A stretch of DNA of 64,000 nucleotides from Escherichia phage PNJ-9, in the sequence record PQ100635.1, one strand, 5' to 3'. The notes beneath the pieces were generated by a model, which saw only the letters and a list, made by a program, of their open reading frames with translations, had not been told where the DNA came from and did no database searches. A program made the translations under genes and the position numbers. Positions 7,526-59,060 of this stretch are shown here, one piece after another. The number at the start of each line of letters is the position of its first letter. Position 1 is the stretch's first letter.

Positions 7526-10500
7526 TGCTAAACGAACGATATAGTTAAAAGCAACGTTTTTAACTGTGTTTTCTGTATTTCCTGTGGCATTTACAGTTAT
7601 TGTATGTCCATGGGAACCGATTGCAACAGTATGAGAATGAGCACCAATACCAACAGTATGGGAGTGGGCACCAATACCCACAGTATGTGCGTGAGCGCCT
7701 GCGCTTGCAGCAGTACCAGATATAGAGTGCGAATGTGCCCCAGAAGAAGAAGTTCCAAGCGTATTACCACCACCGGCGGATCCTCTTATAGAACCAGTAC
7801 CAGGAGCGTTGTTACTTCCCGCATAAAGAGCGCTTGTGTGGCTGTGCGCACCGGCGGTGTTTGTGGAACCGCTCAAACTATGCGTATGAGCACCAGTATT
7901 ATTACTGGTCTTAGTACCATAGTCGAAACTACTTGTCGTCTTAGTACCATAGTCAAAGCTTGATGTGGTCTTAGTACCCAAATCCGTGCTTGATGCACTT
8001 GCACTATGACTATGTGACTTAACACCGTCTGCTTCTGTACTTAATACAGCACGCCCAGATGGTTTACCCTTGATAGTTTGCCCGCGCATATCAGGCAGAG
8101 AGCCGGAAGGATACACCGCAGCTAACTTAGGATACAAGCCAACATCAAATGTTTGACCTTCCATTATGGCATAACCTTCAGGAGGTGTATCAGTAGGCCA
8201 AGGAATCGGAGCACCAATTGGATAACTTGAGACAATATCCGTCTTAAGGTTATTTATTGTGGTATTCAAGTTAGCAAAATTGCCAGAACCACCGGTGATA
8301 TTACCATCAGTACCAATACGAACATTACCAGCGCCTAATTTACCAGGAGAGTAAAAATCACCGTTTTTATTAAATTCCCAACCTAAATCCTTTATAATTG
8401 CGCCAGTAGAAACGCCATCGCCACCTTCGTGATAATGAACTCTAAAGTTACCACCATTAATTAAAGTACCAATAGAATAGCAACTATTATTTTGAACGTA
8501 TCTTTGTTTCACAATAGGAACATAAGTGCTTGTATCTGTTCTATCAATATTCATATAGAAAGGAGCACGAACGTTTTCATTATTCTGGGAAGCAAATGAA
8601 CCCGCTCCGGCTGGGCGAACAGCATCAGTACATTCTGCATCGATGTACGCCGACTGACCTATCTGCATTCTGAAATTAGGAGAAATGCGACTATTACTAG
8701 TAACAACAACAAGTTTGTTATCGTTGTCCACAGTAATCATATTACCACCAGCACCATCATCGCCTAACGTAACAGAATGACGCATTTGCACCATACCATT
8801 ATTAAGGCTAATACTAAGCGGGCGGAGATTACTTATTCCACCACTTTCACCTGCATCTTTAAGTGTAGGTATAATATGCAAAGACGCTTCAGAACGACGG
8901 AAAATAGCTCCATATTCAGCATTGTAAATACGGAAAGCATCTGCGGTATTACCGATTTTAACTTGACCGGTAATAGAACCACCACCGGATAAAACAAGCC
9001 CGTTATCCATAGTAACTTGTCCGGATAATGTACTTAATCCATTAACTCTAAGACTTCCATCGGTGATAATGCTCCCTCTTGCATTCAGTTGTCCATTAAT
9101 TTGTGTTACAACAGGTCCCACAGTTTCTGAACCGGTTGGAGCTACGCGCTGAGAATAAAAATAATATCCTTGTCCGTCAGCTACTTCAAAAACTGTTTCA
9201 CGATTACGATCGCCGGATACGTTAAATGAATTACCCCATGCTTTAACAGTTACATAACTCTTATTCTGACCTGCTCGAGTACCGCCTTCCCACATGATTT
9301 GCTTAGTGCCGTCAATACCTGAAGCTGCTTTAAAAACTAGAGAAGCATTAGTTCCATCACCATTAAAATATAATCCATTATTAAGCTTTAATGTTTGAAC
9401 AGAAGCGACGGTACCATCAGCACGCAAACTTAATGTATTTGAACCAGTGCTAATATCTAAAATTCCTGGTTCAACAAGGAGACCTTGGGACATACCAACA
9501 GCCATACGACCTGTACCACGGAAATAGTGATACATTTTAGAATTACTGTTATAACCGATATGAGTCTGACCGTCACCGTTATTATTACCATCAACATCGG
9601 TACGCGCAGTAAACATTGCTTGGTTGTTATTTGGGTAATCCCAAGTAGAACCAGAATCTCGACTATAACCAACCATCAATTTTTTAGTACTGTTAATACC
9701 ATTATTAAGAATAGTGCCGGCAGAAATACCATTCGCAACCAAATCAATAACACCGTCACGAACCCATTTAACACCAGTGTCATTATCACCAATTGCAATA
9801 CCTTTACCAAATGTGGCCAAAGGATAACGCCCTTGGGAGCCGACATCGGCAAGACCTACACCTATCGAATTAGCAACAGACATACGCCCGTCGGTGGTAT
9901 AAGACCATTGATAAACTTCAGCATTGCGCCCAGTCCAATATGAAATATTCTGTGGTTTACCTGAACGAGCATCAGCAATTTCATGGAAAATAGCAGAAGA
10001 AACATGTCCGCGGAATTTACGAAGGTAGTTTATACCATTAGTATCCAAATCTGTTTCGGTTGGAGTATATTGCCAAGTCGGTAATGAAACTAAATCATAT
10101 GCAGTATCAATATTAGTGTCCCAAGATTTAGTGCTCACATTGATATTTTTGGTAATAACTTTAGGACCAATTAAAGAACCAGCTTTAGTTTCAATATTAC
10201 TTTGAGTAACTAAATATCCATTAGATACTAATAAATTTCCGGAATCAACTTGAAAATTACCATTACGGTTAAAGGTCCAATATTTCGAAGTGCCTGTTTC
10301 ATCGATATAATGCATCTTCATTGAGCCTTCATTTACCAAGGTCCCTAATGAGAAAGTACCGTCTTTATAACGCTGCTTAAACAGCGGATGGTATTCAGAA
10401 GTAGCAGTAGTAGAACTTAAGTCGGTAAAAATAGGAGCTTTATTTAGGTGTTGATTTGCCCACGCACCATTACCGGCTGTTTTAGGTAAAAATTCAATAT

Positions 10501-11462: not shown

Positions 11463-11487
11463 CAAAAATGGGAGCCTTCGGGCTCCC
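11463..11487 (-). terminator. terminator-like hairpin after gene 35
   Basis: GGGAGCC-UUCG/CGAA-GGCUCCC hairpin followed by U-run on - strand. Confidence 0.55.
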
Positions 11488-11492
11488 TAAAT

Positions 11493-12620
11493 TTATTCTG
11501 ACGCTTCTTTAAATTCTTGTCCAAATACCTTACCAGTATCAGTTGAAGATTGAGTAGGTAATGTCATTATGTCTGGGGCACTTAAAGATTCTGAAACATA
11601 ATTTACACGAATACCGTTTATACCAAACTCGGCAGGTTTTGAAACGCTTCCATTACATGATACTTCAGTGAATATAACGTTTCTTAATCCACCTTGCCCG
11701 ACTGGAGCTGTACGATAACAATAAATCGTGAACCCGTCAGCACCAGCAGGAATTTCTACGTAGTCTTCATATATCTTCCATTCACCTGCGGCCCCATCAA
11801 AGTTTGTATCCTTAAATGAAATAGGTGAAGTAGAAGGAGATTTAAAGAAACGAATAGAAAGTCGTGTCGTCCCTTGTGCTAACAAATCAGCATCGGCCAT
11901 TAGTTGGAATTTCATATAAAGGAAATCTCCAGGCTTCAATTTATACCCAGCGAGAGGTGTAATAAGGGACGTTGTAGGCATCCTTTTAATTTCATTATTA
12001 GTACCTCCAACAGCGGATAAAAATGTGTCTGACGATTCGTACGTACGACTAGGGAAGCCGGTAGCACCAATATCATTAATCGTGTCGTACACAACATCAA
12101 GTGGTGTACTATAGTCGGTTGAAGTTTTCTTATTACTATACTTAATATGTTCTAGTGCTATAGCATTCTTACCAGAAATATAAAATGCCGAATAAGAAAT
12201 GTCCACTATATTTAAAACTTGTTGAGCTAATGGAATAACAGAACTTCCAGCTTTAGTAAACCATGCGAGAACTTCAGGAGGAAAGTTTGTTTTAGCGTTA
12301 GTAACAAGAGCAAATATAAAATTAGAAGCGTATGTGTCCATGTAAGTAACGAATGCGCTTGACGTGGCGTCGTTTTCAGTAGAGAAATTATATGACTTAG
12401 ATTCAACTACTGCACCTGTTGTAGGATTTATTACACGAACGTTTAATCCAACGGAAAAAACCTGGGACCCAAGTGGATTATCTTGGAACTTAATATAAGC
12501 AGGAGATGTTGATAGCGGGCAAGAGCCCGCTATGCTTAATTTAAATCGTACTGAATTGCTTTCCGATAAAAATGGCGTTTGGACGTATCCTTGTCCAAAC
12601 TTAGCCATAAATTTTTCCAT
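11493..12620 (-). CDS. 35: long tail fibre proximal connector gp35
   Basis: 375 aa; position and length as T4 gp35 between 34 and 36. Confidence 0.85.
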   Translation of the reverse strand: MEKFMAKFGQGYVQTPFLSESNSVRFKLSIAGSCPLSTSPAYIKFQDNPLGSQVFSVGLNVRVINPTTGAVVESKSYNFSTENDATSSAFVTYMDTYASNFIFALVTNAKTNFPPEVLAWFTKAGSSVIPLAQQVLNIVDISYSAFYISGKNAIALEHIKYSNKKTSTDYSTPLDVVYDTINDIGATGFPSRTYESSDTFLSAVGGTNNEIKRMPTTSLITPLAGYKLKPGDFLYMKFQLMADADLLAQGTTRLSIRFFKSPSTSPISFKDTNFDGAAGEWKIYEDYVEIPAGADGFTIYCYRTAPVGQGGLRNVIFTEVSCNGSVSKPAEFGINGIRVNYVSESLSAPDIMTLPTQSSTDTGKVFGQEFKEASE

Positions 12621-19799: not shown

Positions 19800-19821
19800 G
19801 GGAGACTTCGGTCTCCCTTTT
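19800..19821 (+). terminator. rho-independent terminator (UUCG tetraloop hairpin)
   Basis: GGGAGAC-UUCG-GUCUCCC followed by UUUU immediately after gene 32. Confidence 0.75.
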
Positions 19822-32478: not shown

Positions 32479-33471
32479 ATGTTACCTGTCGTCAGAAAAC
32501 TTATTTCTCCAAAAGAACTGGCTGAGATTATTCCTTTGTCGGAAGCTTACGCATCACAAGTGGCTTCTCATCGCGAACAAGTTAATTCGATTATGAACGG
32601 TGAAGACCCACGCAAACTTATTGTTGTAGGTCCTTGTTCAATTCATGACCCTATTGCTGCTGTTGAATACGGCAAACGTCTGGCTGAACTTCAAACTCGT
32701 CTTCCTAATGTTCTGTTAGTGATGCGCGTTTATTTTGAAAAGCCTCGAACTACCGTAGGTTGGAAAGGTCTTGTAAATGATCCATATCTTGACGGAAGTT
32801 TTGATATGAACCACGGTCTTATAGTTGCACGAACATTGTGTCGTAAACTTCTACGTATGGGACTTCCATTAGCAACTGAAGTATTAGACCCATTCACGAT
32901 TAAGTATCTTTCTGGTATTTTCTCATGGGTTGCTATTGGCGCCCGTACGACTGAAAGTCAGACACATCGTGAAATTGCTTCAGGTCTACCGATGTGCGTA
33001 GGCTTCAAGAACGCAACCAATGGTTCTATTAAAGTAGCTACAGACGCGATGTATAGTGCCGCCTGGCCTCATCGGTATATGGGTATGGACGTCGATGGTA
33101 CTGTAGGCATTGTTGAAGCTGAAGGTAATCAGAATACGCATATCGTATTGCGTGGCGGGACTAACGGCCCGAACTATCATTCTTCTGATATTCAAGAAGC
33201 TTCTAACAAAGCAAGTGCATTAGGTCTGAATCATTATGTAATGGTTGACTGTAGCCATGCAAACGCTGATGGGTATTATAGCAATCAAATTGGTATTGGT
33301 AAAAATTTAGCAGCTAATGATTTGGTCAAAGGAATTATGATAGAATCATTCCTACATGAAGGAAATCAAAAAATTTCTGATAATATGTCCTATGGCGTTT
33401 CCGTTACCGATGCGTGCATCGGTTGGGAACAAACTAAAGAGCTGTTAACTTATATTAATAAGGTTCAATAA
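32479..33471 (+). CDS. 3-deoxy-D-arabino-heptulosonate 7-phosphate (DAHP) synthase, AroG/F/H class I-alpha type
   Basis: 330 aa; motifs recalled from E. coli AroG: GPCSIHD, RVYFEKPRTTVGWKGL.NDP, WVAIGARTTESQ.HRE.ASGL, RGG..PNY, D.SHAN, ESFLHEGNQ, TDACIGW. Confidence 0.85.
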   Translation: MLPVVRKLISPKELAEIIPLSEAYASQVASHREQVNSIMNGEDPRKLIVVGPCSIHDPIAAVEYGKRLAELQTRLPNVLLVMRVYFEKPRTTVGWKGLVNDPYLDGSFDMNHGLIVARTLCRKLLRMGLPLATEVLDPFTIKYLSGIFSWVAIGARTTESQTHREIASGLPMCVGFKNATNGSIKVATDAMYSAAWPHRYMGMDVDGTVGIVEAEGNQNTHIVLRGGTNGPNYHSSDIQEASNKASALGLNHYVMVDCSHANADGYYSNQIGIGKNLAANDLVKGIMIESFLHEGNQKISDNMSYGVSVTDACIGWEQTKELLTYINKVQ

Positions 33472-34052
33472 TGAAAGCTAGCACATACCTTCAGATTGCA
33501 TATCTGATTTCTCAAGAATCAAAATGTTGTTCATGGAAAGTTGGCGCAGTCATTGAAAAAGATGGACGCATTATCTCTACTGGATATAATGGCTCACCAG
33601 CAGGTGGCGTTAACTGTTGTGAACATGCATCCGAAAACGGTTGGTTGAAGAATAAACCAAGCCCGGTCATCGTTGCTGGACATAAAGAAGGCACTACAGC
33701 ATTTGGACGGGTGGATAATTTTGTTTTGGCTAAAGAACATCGGGCCGCTCATAGTGCATGGTCTGCTAATAACGAAATCCATGCTGAATTGAATGCCATT
33801 TTGTTTGCAGCTCGTAAAGGTAATTCTATTGAAGGTGCTACGTTGTATACGACACTTTCTCCATGTCCTGATTGCACTAAAGCTATTACGCAGTCAGGTA
33901 TTAAAAAGGTTGTATACGCAGAATTATATGACAGATCTCCTGAAAATTGGGCAGACATTCTAAAACAAGCCGGTATTGAAGTAATTCAGTACTCTCGTAA
34001 TAATCTTCGTTCTCTGAATTGGGAACAAATCCGAAACTTTTGTGGTGAATAA
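33471..34052 (+). CDS. cd: dCMP deaminase
   Basis: 193 aa; zinc-binding HAE...PCPDC cytidine/dCMP deaminase motifs; length equals T4 Cd. Confidence 0.9.
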   Translation: MKASTYLQIAYLISQESKCCSWKVGAVIEKDGRIISTGYNGSPAGGVNCCEHASENGWLKNKPSPVIVAGHKEGTTAFGRVDNFVLAKEHRAAHSAWSANNEIHAELNAILFAARKGNSIEGATLYTTLSPCPDCTKAITQSGIKKVVYAELYDRSPENWADILKQAGIEVIQYSRNNLRSLNWEQIRNFCGE

Positions 34053-34054
34053 TT

Positions 34055-34351
34055 ATGATTTTAACTGAACAAGAAACTATGGTTCTTCGTGAACGTATTA
34101 AAACTATTCTGTCTGTAGGCGTTCATTGTGTTGTATTTGAAAAGGCTAACGGCGAGGTACGCACTATGTTTGCTTCGCGCGATGAACTTGAAGTAAAATA
34201 CGAAAATAACAATCCAGCAACAGAAGTTCGTTATGAACCTCGTGAATCAGTTCGAGCATTCGACACCAAGTTAGGTCAGTGGCGTTCTTTCCGCCTTGAT
34301 AAAGTAATTTCAGTTGATGGTACTCCTGTAGAACGTTTGCTTCTTATGTAA
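34055..34351 (+). CDS. hypothetical protein (98 aa)
   Basis: ORF immediately after cd; no motif recognised. Confidence 0.5.
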   Translation: MILTEQETMVLRERIKTILSVGVHCVVFEKANGEVRTMFASRDELEVKYENNNPATEVRYEPRESVRAFDTKLGQWRSFRLDKVISVDGTPVERLLLM

Positions 34352-34378
34352 TATGCTTTACGAATAGTATGGTATTAT
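34352..34378 (+). promoter_or_regulatory. putative MotA-dependent middle promoter upstream of gene 31
   Basis: MotA box aTGCTTTA (34353-34360), 12-bp spacer, TATTAT 34373-34378. Confidence 0.5.
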
Positions 34379-34408
34379 TAATCTATCGTCAAACAACAAG
34401 GAAATAAG

Positions 34409-34741
34409 ATGTCTGAAGTACAACTCCCAATTCGTGCTGTTGGTGAATATGTCATTCTGGTTTCTGAACCCGCTCAAGCAGGTGATGAAGAAGTTACAGA
34501 ATCAGGACTTGTGATTGGTAAACGTGTTCAAGGTGAAGTTCCTGAACTATGTGTAGTTCATTCTGTAGGTCCTGATGTTCCTGAAGGTTTTGTTGAAGTC
34601 GGTGATTTGACTCCACTACCAGTTGGACAAATTCGAAATGTTCCACATCCATTTGTGGCTTTGGGACTTAAACAACCTAAAGAAATTAAACAGAAATTCG
34701 TAACATGCCACTATAAAGCTATTCCGTGTCTTTATAAGTGA
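34409..34741 (+). CDS. 31: co-chaperonin gp31 (GroES analogue)
   Basis: 110 aa; near-identical to T4 gp31 as recalled ([55 protein letters not shown]). Confidence 0.9.
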
Positions 34742-34749
34742 TATAAATA
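34742..34749 (+). promoter_or_regulatory. late promoter TATAAATA upstream of rIII
   Basis: Exact TATAAATA immediately after gene 31 stop. Confidence 0.45.
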
Positions 34750-34865
34750 ACTATATGAAGAGAACACTCTTCTAAGCGGTAGCCTACAACTGAGAGACCT
34801 GTCGAAAGAAGGTGAAATTCAGACGAACGTGGCTACTAAATATTATCTCGAATTGAGAATTTAAA

Positions 34866-35114
34866 ATGATTAAACAATTACAACACGCTCTTGAACTGCA
34901 ACGCCATGCATGGAATAATGGCCACGAAAATTACGGTGCATCTATTGATGTCGAAGCCGAAGCCCTCGAAATCTTACAGTATTTCAAACATCTGAATCCG
35001 GCACAAGCCGATCTTCGCGATATCCTGGTCCAGAAAGATGAATTGAAATATGCTAAGCCTCTGGCTTCTGCCGCACGTAAAGCAGTACGTCATTTTATTA
35101 TTACCCTGAAGTAA
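34866..35114 (+). CDS. rIII: lysis inhibition accessory protein RIII
   Basis: 82 aa; length and sequence consistent with T4 RIII. Confidence 0.8.
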   Translation: MIKQLQHALELQRHAWNNGHENYGASIDVEAEALEILQYFKHLNPAQADLRDILVQKDELKYAKPLASAARKAVRHFIITLK

Positions 35115-35382
35115 GCTAAATCGAGGAGCCGTCGAATTGTCTGATTATCGATTTGCGAATCGGTATGTTTTAGAAGTACCGCCCCGACAATTTTACGGTG
35201 TACCTCTTGAATGTATTTTGTACTATCACGCGTCAGAAAAGGGTTATCTGTTTAAGTCGTGGTTGGTATGATGACGGGTTTATGGTTATCCTGTCGTTAA
35301 ATATCCAAAACCTATGTTCCCCTTGAGGGCTTGCGCAGGCAATGTCAATAAGTCCTGCATTTTCATTTAAAGAGAATTTATA

Positions 35383-35562
35383 ATGGCAAAACAAGCTAAA
35401 GCAAAGAAAGCAGTTGAAAAGAAAGTTGATGGTACCTCTAAACGCGCTGGATACAAGCGTGGGTCGAACTCTCGTATTAATCAAACAGTTGAGAAGATCA
35501 TGCGCAGAGCACGTGCAGTTCTTCGAGATGATGCTTCTCGTTTTGGAAAGGTTGTTGCATAA
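35383..35562 (+). CDS. small basic protein (59 aa), below the ORF-track length cutoff
   Basis: ATG 35383 to TAA 35560-35562; Lys/Arg-rich (MAKQAKAKKAVEKKVDG..KRAGYKRG); followed directly by a strong UUCG hairpin terminator. Confidence 0.5.
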   Translation: MAKQAKAKKAVEKKVDGTSKRAGYKRGSNSRINQTVEKIMRRARAVLRDDASRFGKVVA

Positions 35563-35567
35563 ATTTA

Positions 35568-35589
35568 GGGAGACTTCGGTCTCCCTTTT
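35568..35589 (+). terminator. rho-independent terminator (UUCG tetraloop hairpin)
   Basis: GGGAGAC-UUCG-GUCUCCC + UUUU; identical hairpin to the gene 32 terminator. Confidence 0.75.
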
Positions 35590-35622
35590 GTGCGTTTAGG
35601 GCAGAAAAAGTTTAAAAAAGAT

Positions 35623-35654
35623 GTTTACTCTCCTGTAGGATGTGTTACTATAGA
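35623..35654 (+). promoter_or_regulatory. sigma70-type early promoter
   Basis: GTTTAC 35623-35628, TACTATAG -10 region. Confidence 0.55.
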
Positions 35655-35693
35655 CTTGTACCACCTAATCAATAAAACAAACCGGAGAACAAA

Positions 35694-36062
35694 ATGAAAA
35701 TCAATCTGAACTCATACATCAAATGTAAAGACCACGACGGTTATAAAGCTATCGAAATTAAAGAATTCCAATGGATGTTATACAAAGAGCAATTTGAGTT
35801 CGTAGGTTGTATGACCCCTGAAGGTCCTTCTGATGATTTCTCTTGGAAAATTGTGTTAGCAAACTTTTTCACGGGTGACACATACGAATTAAAAACTATT
35901 ATTACTGGTAAAATTCGCTCAGAAACATATGTTGACGAAGAAACTGGTTACTCTGAAGATGTCACATGGTATCAAAATGGACGCATTACAGCAGATAACC
36001 TGATCGAAAAAATGAAAGCCAAAGGTGTTTTAAATTTAGACAATTGGATTAAAGTTGCATAA
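35694..36062 (+). CDS. hypothetical protein (122 aa)
   Basis: ORF with GGAGA RBS after promoter; no motif recognised. Confidence 0.5.
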   Translation: MKINLNSYIKCKDHDGYKAIEIKEFQWMLYKEQFEFVGCMTPEGPSDDFSWKIVLANFFTGDTYELKTIITGKIRSETYVDEETGYSEDVTWYQNGRITADNLIEKMKAKGVLNLDNWIKVA

Positions 36063-36066
36063 AACA

Positions 36067-36106
36067 GTTTACTTTGGTACAGGTTATGTTATTATAGACC
36101 TGTACC
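36067..36106 (+). promoter_or_regulatory. sigma70-type early promoter with flanking dyad (PeSL-like)
   Basis: GTTTAC 36067-36072, TATTATAGA -10; perfect 8-bp dyad ggtacagg/cctgtacc (36076-36083 / 36099-36106). Confidence 0.6.
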
Positions 36107-36136
36107 AACAAACAACTTAAACATCTGGAGAATAAA

Positions 36137-36502
36137 ATGAACTACACCAACTTCGAACGCAAATATGTTTCTAACGGTATCGCTGGTTCTATCGATATGG
36201 TTTGTTTGTGGAAGCATAAAAATGGTTCAGTATGCGAAATTGAGCAGTATATGACTCCTAATTACGTTTATATGCGATTTGAAAATGGCATCACGGTTTC
36301 AATCACGATGGAAGGTTCCAACTTCAAAATTGCATTAGATGACGATTTCCGTCAACGTGATTTAGGTACTCATCCTTGCTGGAACGGTGTTAATCGTAAA
36401 CTTCTGGTTAAAACTTGGATTCGTCATATCCTGAGTAACCGAGCTAAACCTGAACATCTCGAAGCAATCTTTGATGTAATTCTTAACGAATTTGATATCT
36501 AA
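36137..36502 (+). CDS. hypothetical protein (121 aa)
   Basis: ORF with GGAGA RBS; no motif recognised. Confidence 0.5.
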   Translation: MNYTNFERKYVSNGIAGSIDMVCLWKHKNGSVCEIEQYMTPNYVYMRFENGITVSITMEGSNFKIALDDDFRQRDLGTHPCWNGVNRKLLVKTWIRHILSNRAKPEHLEAIFDVILNEFDI

Positions 36503-59042: not shown

Positions 59043-59060
59043 GGGAGACCGAAGTCTCCC
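59043..59060 (-). terminator. UUCG-tetraloop hairpin after gene 23 (also 3' of the + strand HEG)
   Basis: On - strand reads GGGAGAC-UUCG-GUCUCCC, identical to hairpins at 19800 and 35568; downstream U-run is weak. Confidence 0.5.

Follow-up and report, generated by a model that had tools for sequence, protein, structure and literature searches.

A conserved tenpI-like RNA pseudoknot between rIII and gene 30.9 of T4-like phages, a candidate decoy for the TenpN toxin

Introduction

TenpIN systems are type III toxin-antitoxin (abortive-infection) systems that are carried by plasmids of the hosts of Escherichia phage PNJ-9. Here we describe a conserved RNA element of this phage that resembles the tenpI antitoxin and may act as a decoy for the TenpN toxin. 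The element lies in the gene-free gap between rIII and gene 30.9, within a 64,000-nucleotide (nt) stretch of sequence record PQ100635.1 (one strand, 5' to 3') that was analysed as a whole and that we call the window; positions throughout are those of the window unless a locus is named.

The described tenpI antitoxins are H-type pseudoknots with two stems and a stretch of A residues poised for A-minor contacts with stem 1, and they often occur as two non-identical repeats (PMC12283969). For ToxIN systems, activation has been traced from host transcription shutoff through decay of the antitoxin to release of the toxin (PMC10853763). Pectobacterium phage PhiTE encodes a mimic of the ToxI antitoxin, pseudo-ToxI, with 1.5 repeats (PMC3475682); it is the only established phage RNA mimic of a type III antitoxin and was incomplete until its repeats expanded. 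T4-like phages also encode TifA (T4 gene 61.4), a protein inhibitor of ToxN, which did not neutralise the Escherichia coli TenpN in a published screen (PMC10853763), and this leaves room for a separate counter-measure.

A preliminary description of the window, made from its letters alone, had drawn attention to the interval after rIII as a possible small RNA or structured 5' leader of a small basic protein gene. We found that the core of this interval (35268-35316) is a conserved pseudoknot resembling tenpI. From comparison of sequences, we assign a probability of roughly 55% to the reading that this core is an orphan, single-copy tenpI-like antitoxin RNA that would serve as a decoy against TenpN.

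Results

A conserved pseudoknot upstream of gene 30.9

The core occupies positions 35268-35316 on the + strand and is identified by covariation and by two covariance models, R1 and R2, which are introduced below. It has the form of an H-type pseudoknot in which stem 1 (GACGGG/CCUGUC, 35273-78/35290-95, + strand) closes a loop of 11 nt, this loop holds the GGUU of stem 2 (GGUU/AACC, 35284-87/35309-12, + strand), and an A-rich linker, GUUAAAUAUCCAA, spans 35296-35308 on the same strand. We read this anatomy from 49 distinct loci, using the 150 nt that precede the 30.9 start, and from complete gaps, and counted base pairs on 36 distinct sequences; a first alignment gave an agreeing result. Stem 1 was 88.7% paired with changes on both sides in four of its six pairs, and two of the pairs formed in all 36 sequences while using three pair types each (UA/AU/GC and CG/GC/UA). 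Stem 2 was 71% paired, despite rows with a linker one base longer falling out of register, and one of its pairs formed in 35 of the 36 sequences as GC, AU or GU. The covariation score was 0.351, compared with a maximum of 0.168 when the partners were slid, and none of 500 shuffles reached 0.351. Because the G.U pairs would be A.C on the opposite strand, the RNA corresponds to the + strand. Comparative alignment with covariation analysis had been put forward in the preliminary description as a way to check the interval, and the pairs of the pseudoknot do covary. The core also contains insertions or deletions (indels) of 1 nt, which rule out coding.

The interval was found by blastn in 773 phage records, from which an alignment of 12 phages of Mosigvirus, Tequatrovirus and Dhakavirus was made (alignment A1). 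The last ~115 nt of the gap were near-invariant in A1 yet carried 1-nt indels, and the upstream part of the gap was gained or lost in blocks. Identity between the window and T4 was 96.6% over 35268-35382, as against 82.7% for rIII, 89.0% for gp31, 90.6% for 30.9, 57.5% for 30.8 and 59-71% for other spacers; no other stretch in this neighbourhood is as conserved as the pseudoknot, which is fixed. We collected 40 further loci through homology to gp30.9, and every one of them that has rIII kept the order of rIII, a gap of 120-416 nt free of open reading frames (ORFs), and 30.9. The folding energy of the region, computed on the single sequence, was unremarkable (z about -0.1), which is expected since the region consists of a pseudoknot and short hairpins. 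The evidence for RNA structure in the gap is comparative and does not come from single-sequence energy.

The pseudoknot resembles tenpI antitoxins

Using the TenpN_Ec protein sequence (UniProt A0A4T8VJ30) from Table S2 of PMC10853763, tblastn detected TenpN homologues in 128 plasmid records, E. coli, Klebsiella and Salmonella among them; more than 700 tenpN loci have been reported. Six enterobacterial plasmid tenpN loci were then scored, with filters off, by R1, the covariance model of the pseudoknot that was built from the phage copies. In five of the six loci the best match was on the + strand, within the ~150 nt just upstream of tenpN, with scores of 20.2, 18.1, 17.3, 15.5 and 15.1 bits, and in each of these five R1 also picked up the adjacent second tenpI repeat. 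We estimate the chance of such a placement at ~4% per locus. The plasmid loci are laid out as two repeats, then a terminator, then tenpN (for example UGUUGUGGCGGUAGGAACAUCCCCACGUUAAAAACCCAAAUUCCUUGUA). Stem 1 of the tenpI repeats reads GUGG(C)GG/CCCCAC and has a mid-stem bulge at the same position as the phage RNA, and stem 2 joins a loop GGAA with UUCC, or GGAUG with CAUCC and GAACA with UGUUC in other plasmids. The tenpI linker of pKP1433, GUUAAAAACCCAAA, has the same length as that of the window, GUUAAAUAUCCAAA, with 11 of 14 positions identical.

The reverse comparison used R2, a covariance model made from 11 tenpI repeats only (alignment A7). Over both strands of the window (128,000 positions) the top R2 match was 35269-35318, a weak match at 14.9 bits (rough E ~0.1), and the second best scored 10.9 bits. 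R2 matched the pseudoknot coordinates in 14 of 22 phage loci, scoring 23.1 bits (E = 3e-4) in locus L023 and 15.1 bits in T4. One metagenomic contig, L150, has two units side by side on the minus strand: a canonical tenpI-like one at 100-147, matched by R2 at 39 bits (E = 5e-9), and immediately 3' of it a phage-type one at 40-96; the two types therefore occur as a tandem. The contig L150 ends 40 nt beyond the two units. The copy in the window is an orphan, as tblastn of TenpN_Ec and ToxN_Ec against the window gave no match below E = 0.9. We conclude that the link to tenpI rests on the placement and the reciprocity of the matches and not on any single E-value.

Distribution of the pseudoknot

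R1 gave a single match in the 64-kb window, at 35268-35322 (71.5 bits; next best 13.9 bits), and exactly one match in 53 of 54 related (T4-like) loci, upstream of 30.9. The pseudoknot is common to Mosigvirus, Tequatrovirus (including T4 itself) and Dhakavirus, occurs in T4-like genera infecting Klebsiella, Enterobacter, Yersinia, Serratia and Pectobacterium, and is unannotated in hundreds of genomes. Its distance from the 30.9 start codon ranges from ~70 to 300 nt, with other modules inserted between: in some loci it sits next to the Shine-Dalgarno region, and in others it is >250 nt upstream with a 135-nt block, module X, in the intervening sequence. On the T4-like contig L061 (~11700-11990, minus strand) all upstream RNA modules are kept and 30.9 is cut to its ~14 first codons, which are fused in frame to another ORF.

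Further copies were sought by pattern scans followed by R1 scoring. On contigs of phages that are not T4-like we found copies in the same orientation as neighbouring transfer RNA (tRNA) genes: between tRNA-Asp and tRNA-Pro of a 12-tRNA array (L055, 56.7 bits), abutting tRNA-Met (L073 and L128), 220 nt after tRNA-Ile (L099), between tRNA-Lys and another tRNA (L129), and just before tRNA-Met (L157 and L173). Three of these viral contigs, L055, L073 and L099, were not among the 30.9 matches, and no close 30.9 homologue was found in their available sequence. R1 did not support 38 of 59 metagenome pattern matches or 35 of 36 extra viral pattern matches, and the strict pattern, run over 185,579 bacterial and archaeal species with one genome each, gave two chance matches that lack stem 1 and no real copy. 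Permissive Rfam searches of both strands returned only tRNAs or chance matches for window positions 34000-36500, for 35255-35385 and for five relatives, and Rfam likewise returned only tRNAs and chance matches on seven non-T4 loci and on L018. Based on these occurrences, the pseudoknot is an autonomous module. As side observations, L055 carries a 473-amino-acid (aa) ORF (8936-10357, minus strand) that we take to be a vWA/TROVE-like (DUF2828-type) protein, and L129 has a sub-threshold match to Y-RNA-like (YrlA) RNA at 739-861.

Hairpins downstream of the core and competing explanations

Downstream of the core, hairpin P3 (CCCC-UUGA-GGG, 35319-29) and a conserved CUUGCG form a unit at 35319-35335 on the + strand. 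The P3 stem varies across genera (CCUC/GAGG, GCC/GGC, GCU/AGC), and depending on the locus the P3-CUUG unit stands before or after the pseudoknot, being 5' of it, not 3', in some genera. From reading of the sequence, hairpin P4 (GCAGG/CCUGC with a 14-nt loop, then a U-rich run) follows at 35335-35359 (+ strand). The preliminary description had noticed this gcagg...cctgc stem-loop, which exists, although its arms lie at 35335-35339 and 35354-35358 and not at 35327-35350. Stems in the P4 position of other genera read GGGAGC/GCUCCC, GGGAAC/GUUCCC, GAACUGG/CCAGUUC and GGCGA/UCGCC. Finally, folds place UUUUC (35360-64) opposite the Shine-Dalgarno sequence GAGAA (35372-76), which is 6 nt before the 30.9 AUG, in a hairpin that occludes the Shine-Dalgarno sequence (35360-35376, + strand); the equivalents in other genera are UCUCC/GGAAGA, CCUC/GAGG and AUCCU/AGAGAU. 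The three hairpins were judged by per-sequence folds, as MAFFT could not align the variable inserts, and folds of 14 divergent leaders show them again, with stem sequences that differ from leader to leader. The stem that occludes the Shine-Dalgarno sequence probably damps or times translation of 30.9, as judged from the predicted folds. Separately, we noticed that GCUUG (35329-33) is complementary to CAAGC (35392-96) in codons 4-5 of 30.9. For L036 and L023 the minimum-energy fold contains this pairing, and for the window it contains the adjacent UUGC-GCAA; either would enclose P4, the Shine-Dalgarno hairpin and the AUG. The long-range pairing is not conserved in Dhakavirus.

These features bring to mind a cis-acting 5' leader or translational operator of 30.9, in which the pseudoknot and hairpins would bind a protein, perhaps gp30.9 itself, and together with the Shine-Dalgarno stem would set the translation or stability of the 30.9 mRNA, in the manner of the T4 gene 32, regA and gene 43 operators. 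The near-constant place of the pseudoknot upstream of 30.9, the recurrence of hairpins occluding the Shine-Dalgarno sequence in different sequences, the small, basic and unusually conserved gp30.9, and the potential of GCUUG to pair with codons 4-5 all speak for such a leader, and it could coexist with a decoy role. We nevertheless regard it as unlikely to be the principal explanation, given that the distance to the AUG varies, that a module of 135 nt can intervene and the modules change order, that the copies between tRNA genes have no ORF to regulate, that L061 retains the RNA though its 30.9 is truncated and fused, and that L055, L073 and L099 are outside the set of 30.9 matches. Because the distance of the core varies, and because the core persists in L061, sits in tRNA arrays and matches tenpI, regulation of 30.9 is at most a secondary role of the core. 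Both proposals of the preliminary description are supported in part: the small RNA as a conserved, structured + strand RNA strongly backed by covariation that includes G.U pairs, and the regulatory 5' leader in the recurring Shine-Dalgarno hairpin, with a core that is not specific to 30.9.

The neighbourhood of tRNA genes also raises the idea of a stable, processed small RNA with a function in trans unrelated to TenpN, such as a link to tRNA processing or a decoy for a different nuclease. Copies that abut tRNA genes in the same orientation would be released by tRNA processing, and the combined helix of ~12 base pairs (bp) appears to resemble a tRNA acceptor/T minihelix. However, no specific partner was suggested by any test, and the resemblance to tenpI is specific in the stem bulge and in the sequence and length of the linker, so that we hold this idea to be rather improbable. 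A small-pseudoknot riboswitch that senses a ligand and controls 30.9, in the manner of preQ1-I, has the same topology (stem 1, a short first loop, an A-rich third loop and stem 2) and would have the Shine-Dalgarno hairpin downstream. Yet no Rfam model, preQ1-I (RF00522) included, gave a match even at E <=10 on 131 nt, and variable modules separate the would-be aptamer from the Shine-Dalgarno sequence; the missing model match, together with copies between tRNA genes that have nothing to regulate, makes a riboswitch very improbable.

We place a decayed protein gene, a small ORF or an element acting at the DNA level, such as a promoter or a recombination site, equally far down. The gap (35115-35382, 268 nt, between rIII and 30.9) holds no annotated gene in PNJ-6, HX01, moha, T4, RB14, PST, VR5, JS10 or LF82-7. 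Its longest + strand ORF with an ATG start has 18 codons (35314-35370), in agreement with the ~18-codon maximum of the preliminary description; when TTG and GTG starts are admitted, that maximum fails, as the + strand then has ORFs of 44 aa (35137-35271) and 42 aa (35198-35326), and the - strand has an 83-aa ORF. None of the three is conserved, since most relatives have CTG in place of the TTG and every frame is broken by indels of 1 nt and larger, and we rejected all three as coding sequences. The 44-aa frame does have a GAGGAG motif 8 nt upstream of its TTG, a promoter-like TTTTAC...TACTAT is present, and parts of the gap come and go as modular blocks. Against this stand the compensatory changes and G.U pairs, which are properties of a + strand RNA, and the 24-nt spacer of the promoter-like sequence in the window. 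The preliminary description had named as its refuting case a gene in relatives that is simply frame-disrupted here, and this scenario is excluded because no relative has a gene in the gap. It had also called the interval GC-richer, which the composition does not bear out, with a guanine-plus-cytosine (GC) content of 0.385-0.445 in the gap and 0.33-0.445 in the flanking genes. We take the interval to be a transcribed RNA and not a decayed gene, presumably read through from rIII or expressed from an unmapped promoter. A sigma-70 promoter and terminator scan found nothing in the gap, and the same scan missed the obvious terminator at 35568.

A pistol-type self-cleaving ribozyme (RF02679; consensus in PMC4604425) has in common with the phage RNA the stem 1 hairpin with a pseudoknot-forming loop and the 9-mer CGUUAAAUA. 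In the env25 pistol ribozyme the AAA of this 9-mer forms A-minor triples with stem 1 (PMC6101554), and the UUAAAUA after the phage pseudoknot hairpin corresponds to the pistol segment whose AAA docks in the stem 1 minor groove. This identity is nevertheless largely refuted: the phage RNA lacks a P2 helix and a fixed G-U junction of 2 nt following P3, shows no conservation where the catalytic G40, purine 32 or G42 would lie, has just 5 nt in a segment that is 10 nt long in the pistol ribozyme, is not conserved after stem 2, and gave no match to the Rfam Pistol model. Three other identities were rejected. The T4 stable RNAs rnaC and rnaD show no resemblance and gave no model match. For a hammerhead (UGAUGA...GAAAC), the GAAA does not follow the helix, the window has A in place of the G, and not all loci share the 5' flank. 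For a MotA box or middle promoter at GGGCTTGCG, no TAnnnT has the required spacing and other genera have an altered motif.

Other modules of the gap

The 5' end of the gap has its own connection to type III antitoxins. In relatives the gap begins with a ToxI-like unit, of which the window keeps only the 3' remnant GCTAAAT (35115-35121, + strand; alignment A1), a 32-nt deletion having removed the rest. The unit is intact in Dhakavirus and Klebsiella-type relatives and is diverged but recognisable in T4. The Klebsiella-type gap block matches tandem repeats on 66 small enterobacterial plasmids. The toxI repeats of the E. coli toxIN plasmid pNMEC-O75B comprise 5.6 copies of a 36-nt unit, AGGTGATTTGCTACCTTTAAGTGCAGCTAGAAATTC, and aligning the toxI consensus to the gaps gave 32 of 36 identities in Dhakavirus and 30 of 33 in Klebsiella-type phages. 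Relatives scored 45-54, and the window scored 16, no better than chance, where the null was drawn from shuffled sequences with a 99th percentile at a score of 25. Because the gap of relatives starts with a ToxI-like unit, the other gap modules might be antitoxin mimics too. The ToxI-like unit, which is single and right after rIII, was located at L009 672-706, L018 ~1219-1249 and L004 (T4) 1358-1387, and is unannotated everywhere.

Following this remnant, hairpin A (35146-35173, + strand) combines an 8-bp stem (35146-53/35158-65, + strand), a UGCG loop of the UNCG type and U-tract UGUUUUAG, with a fold energy of -7.5 kcal/mol. Alignment A1 shows compensatory changes relative to T4, UAAUGAUU/AAUCAUUA versus UAUCGAUU/AAUCGGUA, one G.U pair included, and hairpin A looks like a weak intrinsic terminator after rIII, a role that we infer. 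The promoter-like sequence (35191-35226, + strand; A1) consists of TTTTAC (35191-96) and TACTAT (35221-26), which are separated by 24 nt in the window as compared to 18 nt in HX01 and PST, and it was not reported by the promoter scan. This early-promoter-like remnant is probably non-functional in this genome. Module B (35221-35267, + strand) is a hairpin with an inner stem of CAGA (35233-36) and TCTG (35247-50) and the motif UAAGUC (35253-58); it folds at -11.9 kcal/mol (z = -2.1), its inner stem is CAGC/GCTG in LF82-7 and L040, and it is found at other positions of the gap in other genera.

Module X, which is absent from the window, spans 135 nt, contains several helices that covary and apparently forms pseudoknots; it is located at L006 ~1265-1400 and in L009, L010, L018 and others. 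Its helices include CCCGA/UCGGG versus CUCUA/UAGAG, CGAUGG/CCAUCG versus UGAUGG/CCAUCA, and a GAAA-capped hairpin. The block was present in 403 phage records of many genera, 384 of them at >=90% identity, with one copy in each genome, and had no match in Rfam or, by blastn, on plasmids. ARAGORN found no tRNA in the 150-nt insertion of U115, VR5 and JS10.

Gene order, gene 30.9 and its terminator

Escherichia phage PNJ-6, a Mosigvirus, matches 34700-35800 at 100% identity, 764 phage records match this stretch, and the window is placed in Mosigvirus (RB69-like). On the + strand the gene order is cd (33471-34052), a 31.1-like gene between cd and gp31, gp31 (34409-34741), rIII (34866-35114), the gap, 30.9 (35383-35562), and then 30.8 and 30.7 on its 3' side. 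The ORF listing bore out the position and size of the 59-aa, Lys/Arg-rich gene reported in the preliminary description as unannotated. That label was mistaken, since the gene is the orthologue of T4 30.9, by its match to phrog_1427 (E = 2.4e-31) and by synteny between rIII and 30.8, and is annotated in most relatives. Its homologues form 65 clusters, mostly >80% identical across genera, and the phrog_1427 family has no assigned function. An AlphaFold2 model of gp30.9 shows two helices with a mean predicted local distance difference test (pLDDT) score of 66 and was too uninformative for a fold search.

Annotation of this region varies. The T4 version of 30.9 is annotated as 72 aa from a start 39 nt upstream of the conserved AUG, an N-terminal extension that we judged spurious. 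In Klebsiella/Enterobacter-type leaders (L018-L020, L023, L037 and L044) a short upstream frame, MYFS(K/E)MED, runs across the Shine-Dalgarno hairpin. Some phages have it in frame with 30.9, whereas elsewhere it terminates at or over the AUG, and annotators often take it as the 30.9 start, giving 68-aa versions. In several phage records (among H2, H21, H57, H90 and H91) gp30.9 is mis-annotated as a "1,4-alpha-glucan (glycogen) branching enzyme, GH-13-type", and relatives' records in the same set have the 31.1-like gene mis-annotated as "tail fibers protein".

The rIII-30.9 unit is closed by an intrinsic terminator, GGGAGAC-UUCG-GUCUCCC-UUUU (35568-35589, + strand; -14.1 kcal/mol, z = -4.3), a GC-rich stem-loop and U-tract predicted from sequence and fold that starts 6 nt past the 30.9 stop codon. 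Its 18-nt stem-loop, GGGAGACTTCGGTCTCCC, has exact copies at 19800-19817 (+) and 59043-59060 (-). The first directly follows gp32 (300 aa), confirming the identity with the gene 32 terminator that had been pointed out in the preliminary description, and the second follows a 405-aa ORF that is presumably the major capsid protein. We also noted a compensated variant with two mismatches, GGGAGCCTTCGGGCTCCC, at 11470-11487. Directly after the 30.9 terminator, T4-early-type promoter-like sites with GTTTAC ... TACTAT and GTTTAC ... TATTAT, and TG upstream, lie at 35623-35651 and ~36065-36095, before 30.8 and 30.7 respectively.

Discussion

We propose that the phage pseudoknot would act when the phage shuts off host transcription. 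The labile host tenpI would then decay and the TenpN endoribonuclease would be freed, at which point the rIII-30.9 transcript may supply the phage's own tenpI-like pseudoknot. This pseudoknot would bind TenpN and hold it inactive, as PhiTE pseudo-ToxI does with ToxN, and the rest of the gap would be accessory RNA, namely the weak terminator-like hairpin after rIII, module B, P3 and P4. The PhiTE precedent and the logic by which type III systems are activated suggest that the phage RNA keeps TenpN inhibited during infection. We infer transcription, TenpN binding and the decoy function from these comparisons, and any effect on 30.9 would come in addition.

Several points weigh against a decoy role. 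The scores across families are modest, at 15-20 bits for R1 on tenpI and 14.9 bits (E ~0.1) for R2 on the window, and blastn found no counterpart of the gap on plasmids or in 5,426 E. coli genomes, so the element is not a recent capture. The phage loop has 11 nt as compared to 9-10 nt in tenpI, with 2 nt unpaired between stem 2 and stem 1. The phage has one copy, in contrast to the arrays of at least two repeats that form antitoxins, and PhiTE escaped ToxIN only after the repeats of pseudo-ToxI had expanded (PMC3475682). Unrelated RNAs such as the pistol ribozyme and the preQ1-I riboswitch also form H-type pseudoknots whose third loop is A-rich, so that convergence is possible. Lastly, in all T4-like phages the element keeps its place just upstream of 30.9, which is also compatible with a role in cis.

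A wider and more tentative possibility is that the whole rIII-30.9 spacer of T4-like phages, T4 among them, is a modular decoy island against abortive infection systems with RNA antitoxins. Its components would be the TenpI-like unit, which is universal, the ToxI-like unit of many genera, module B, P3/P4 and module X, and the basic gp30.9 might be co-expressed as an RNA-binding partner. If this were true, the TenpI-like units in tRNA arrays would point to a general phage strategy in which orphan antitoxins are expressed from stable-RNA operons.

In the open-access literature, with subscription journals largely outside the search, we found nothing on an RNA element located between rIII and 30.9, no function described for gp30.9, and no account of RNAs like tenpI or toxI in T4-like phages. 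Expression of rIII and 30.9 was the subject of a 2003 study that PMC9409239 cites, and a catalogue of 10,006 anonymous candidate viral RNAs could contain the region unnamed (PMC10690425). Mimicry of antitoxin RNA by a phage is itself known; what is new is a mimic of another antitoxin family that is fixed across a phage subfamily and reused in tRNA arrays. A decoy function, if true, would explain a long-standing gene-free gap in T4, predict which phages resist TenpIN, provide a 50-nt RNA tool for TenpN inhibition, and suggest that anti-defence RNAs make up other conserved non-coding blocks of phage genomes and tRNA arrays as well.

Compared with tenpI, the phage RNA has in common the H-type pseudoknot with a 6-bp stem 1 bulged at the same place, a stem 2 formed by the loop with a downstream tract that changes by compensation between copies, and an A-rich linker of 13-14 nt with nearly the same sequence. 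Models built from either side find the other, but with modest scores. The arrangement differs: the window has one copy in place of two or more repeats, the only tandem being that of L150; no TenpN gene is adjacent or elsewhere in the window; and the phage unit is followed by hairpins and gene 30.9, whereas a terminator and the toxin gene follow tenpI. Compared with TifA, which is small, basic and RNA-binding, gp30.9 may be of the same kind, but TifA is a protein encoded elsewhere in the genome and has no similarity to gp30.9. A further parallel is PhiTE pseudo-ToxI, which is likewise an orphan type III antitoxin pseudoknot that a phage carries as non-coding sequence and a proposed toxin neutraliser, and relatives of PNJ-9 carry a ToxI-like unit in the very same gap. 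The PNJ-9 element differs from pseudo-ToxI in belonging to another antitoxin family, in being one unit fixed across a phage subfamily, and in having tenpI-like counterparts in the tRNA arrays of other phages.

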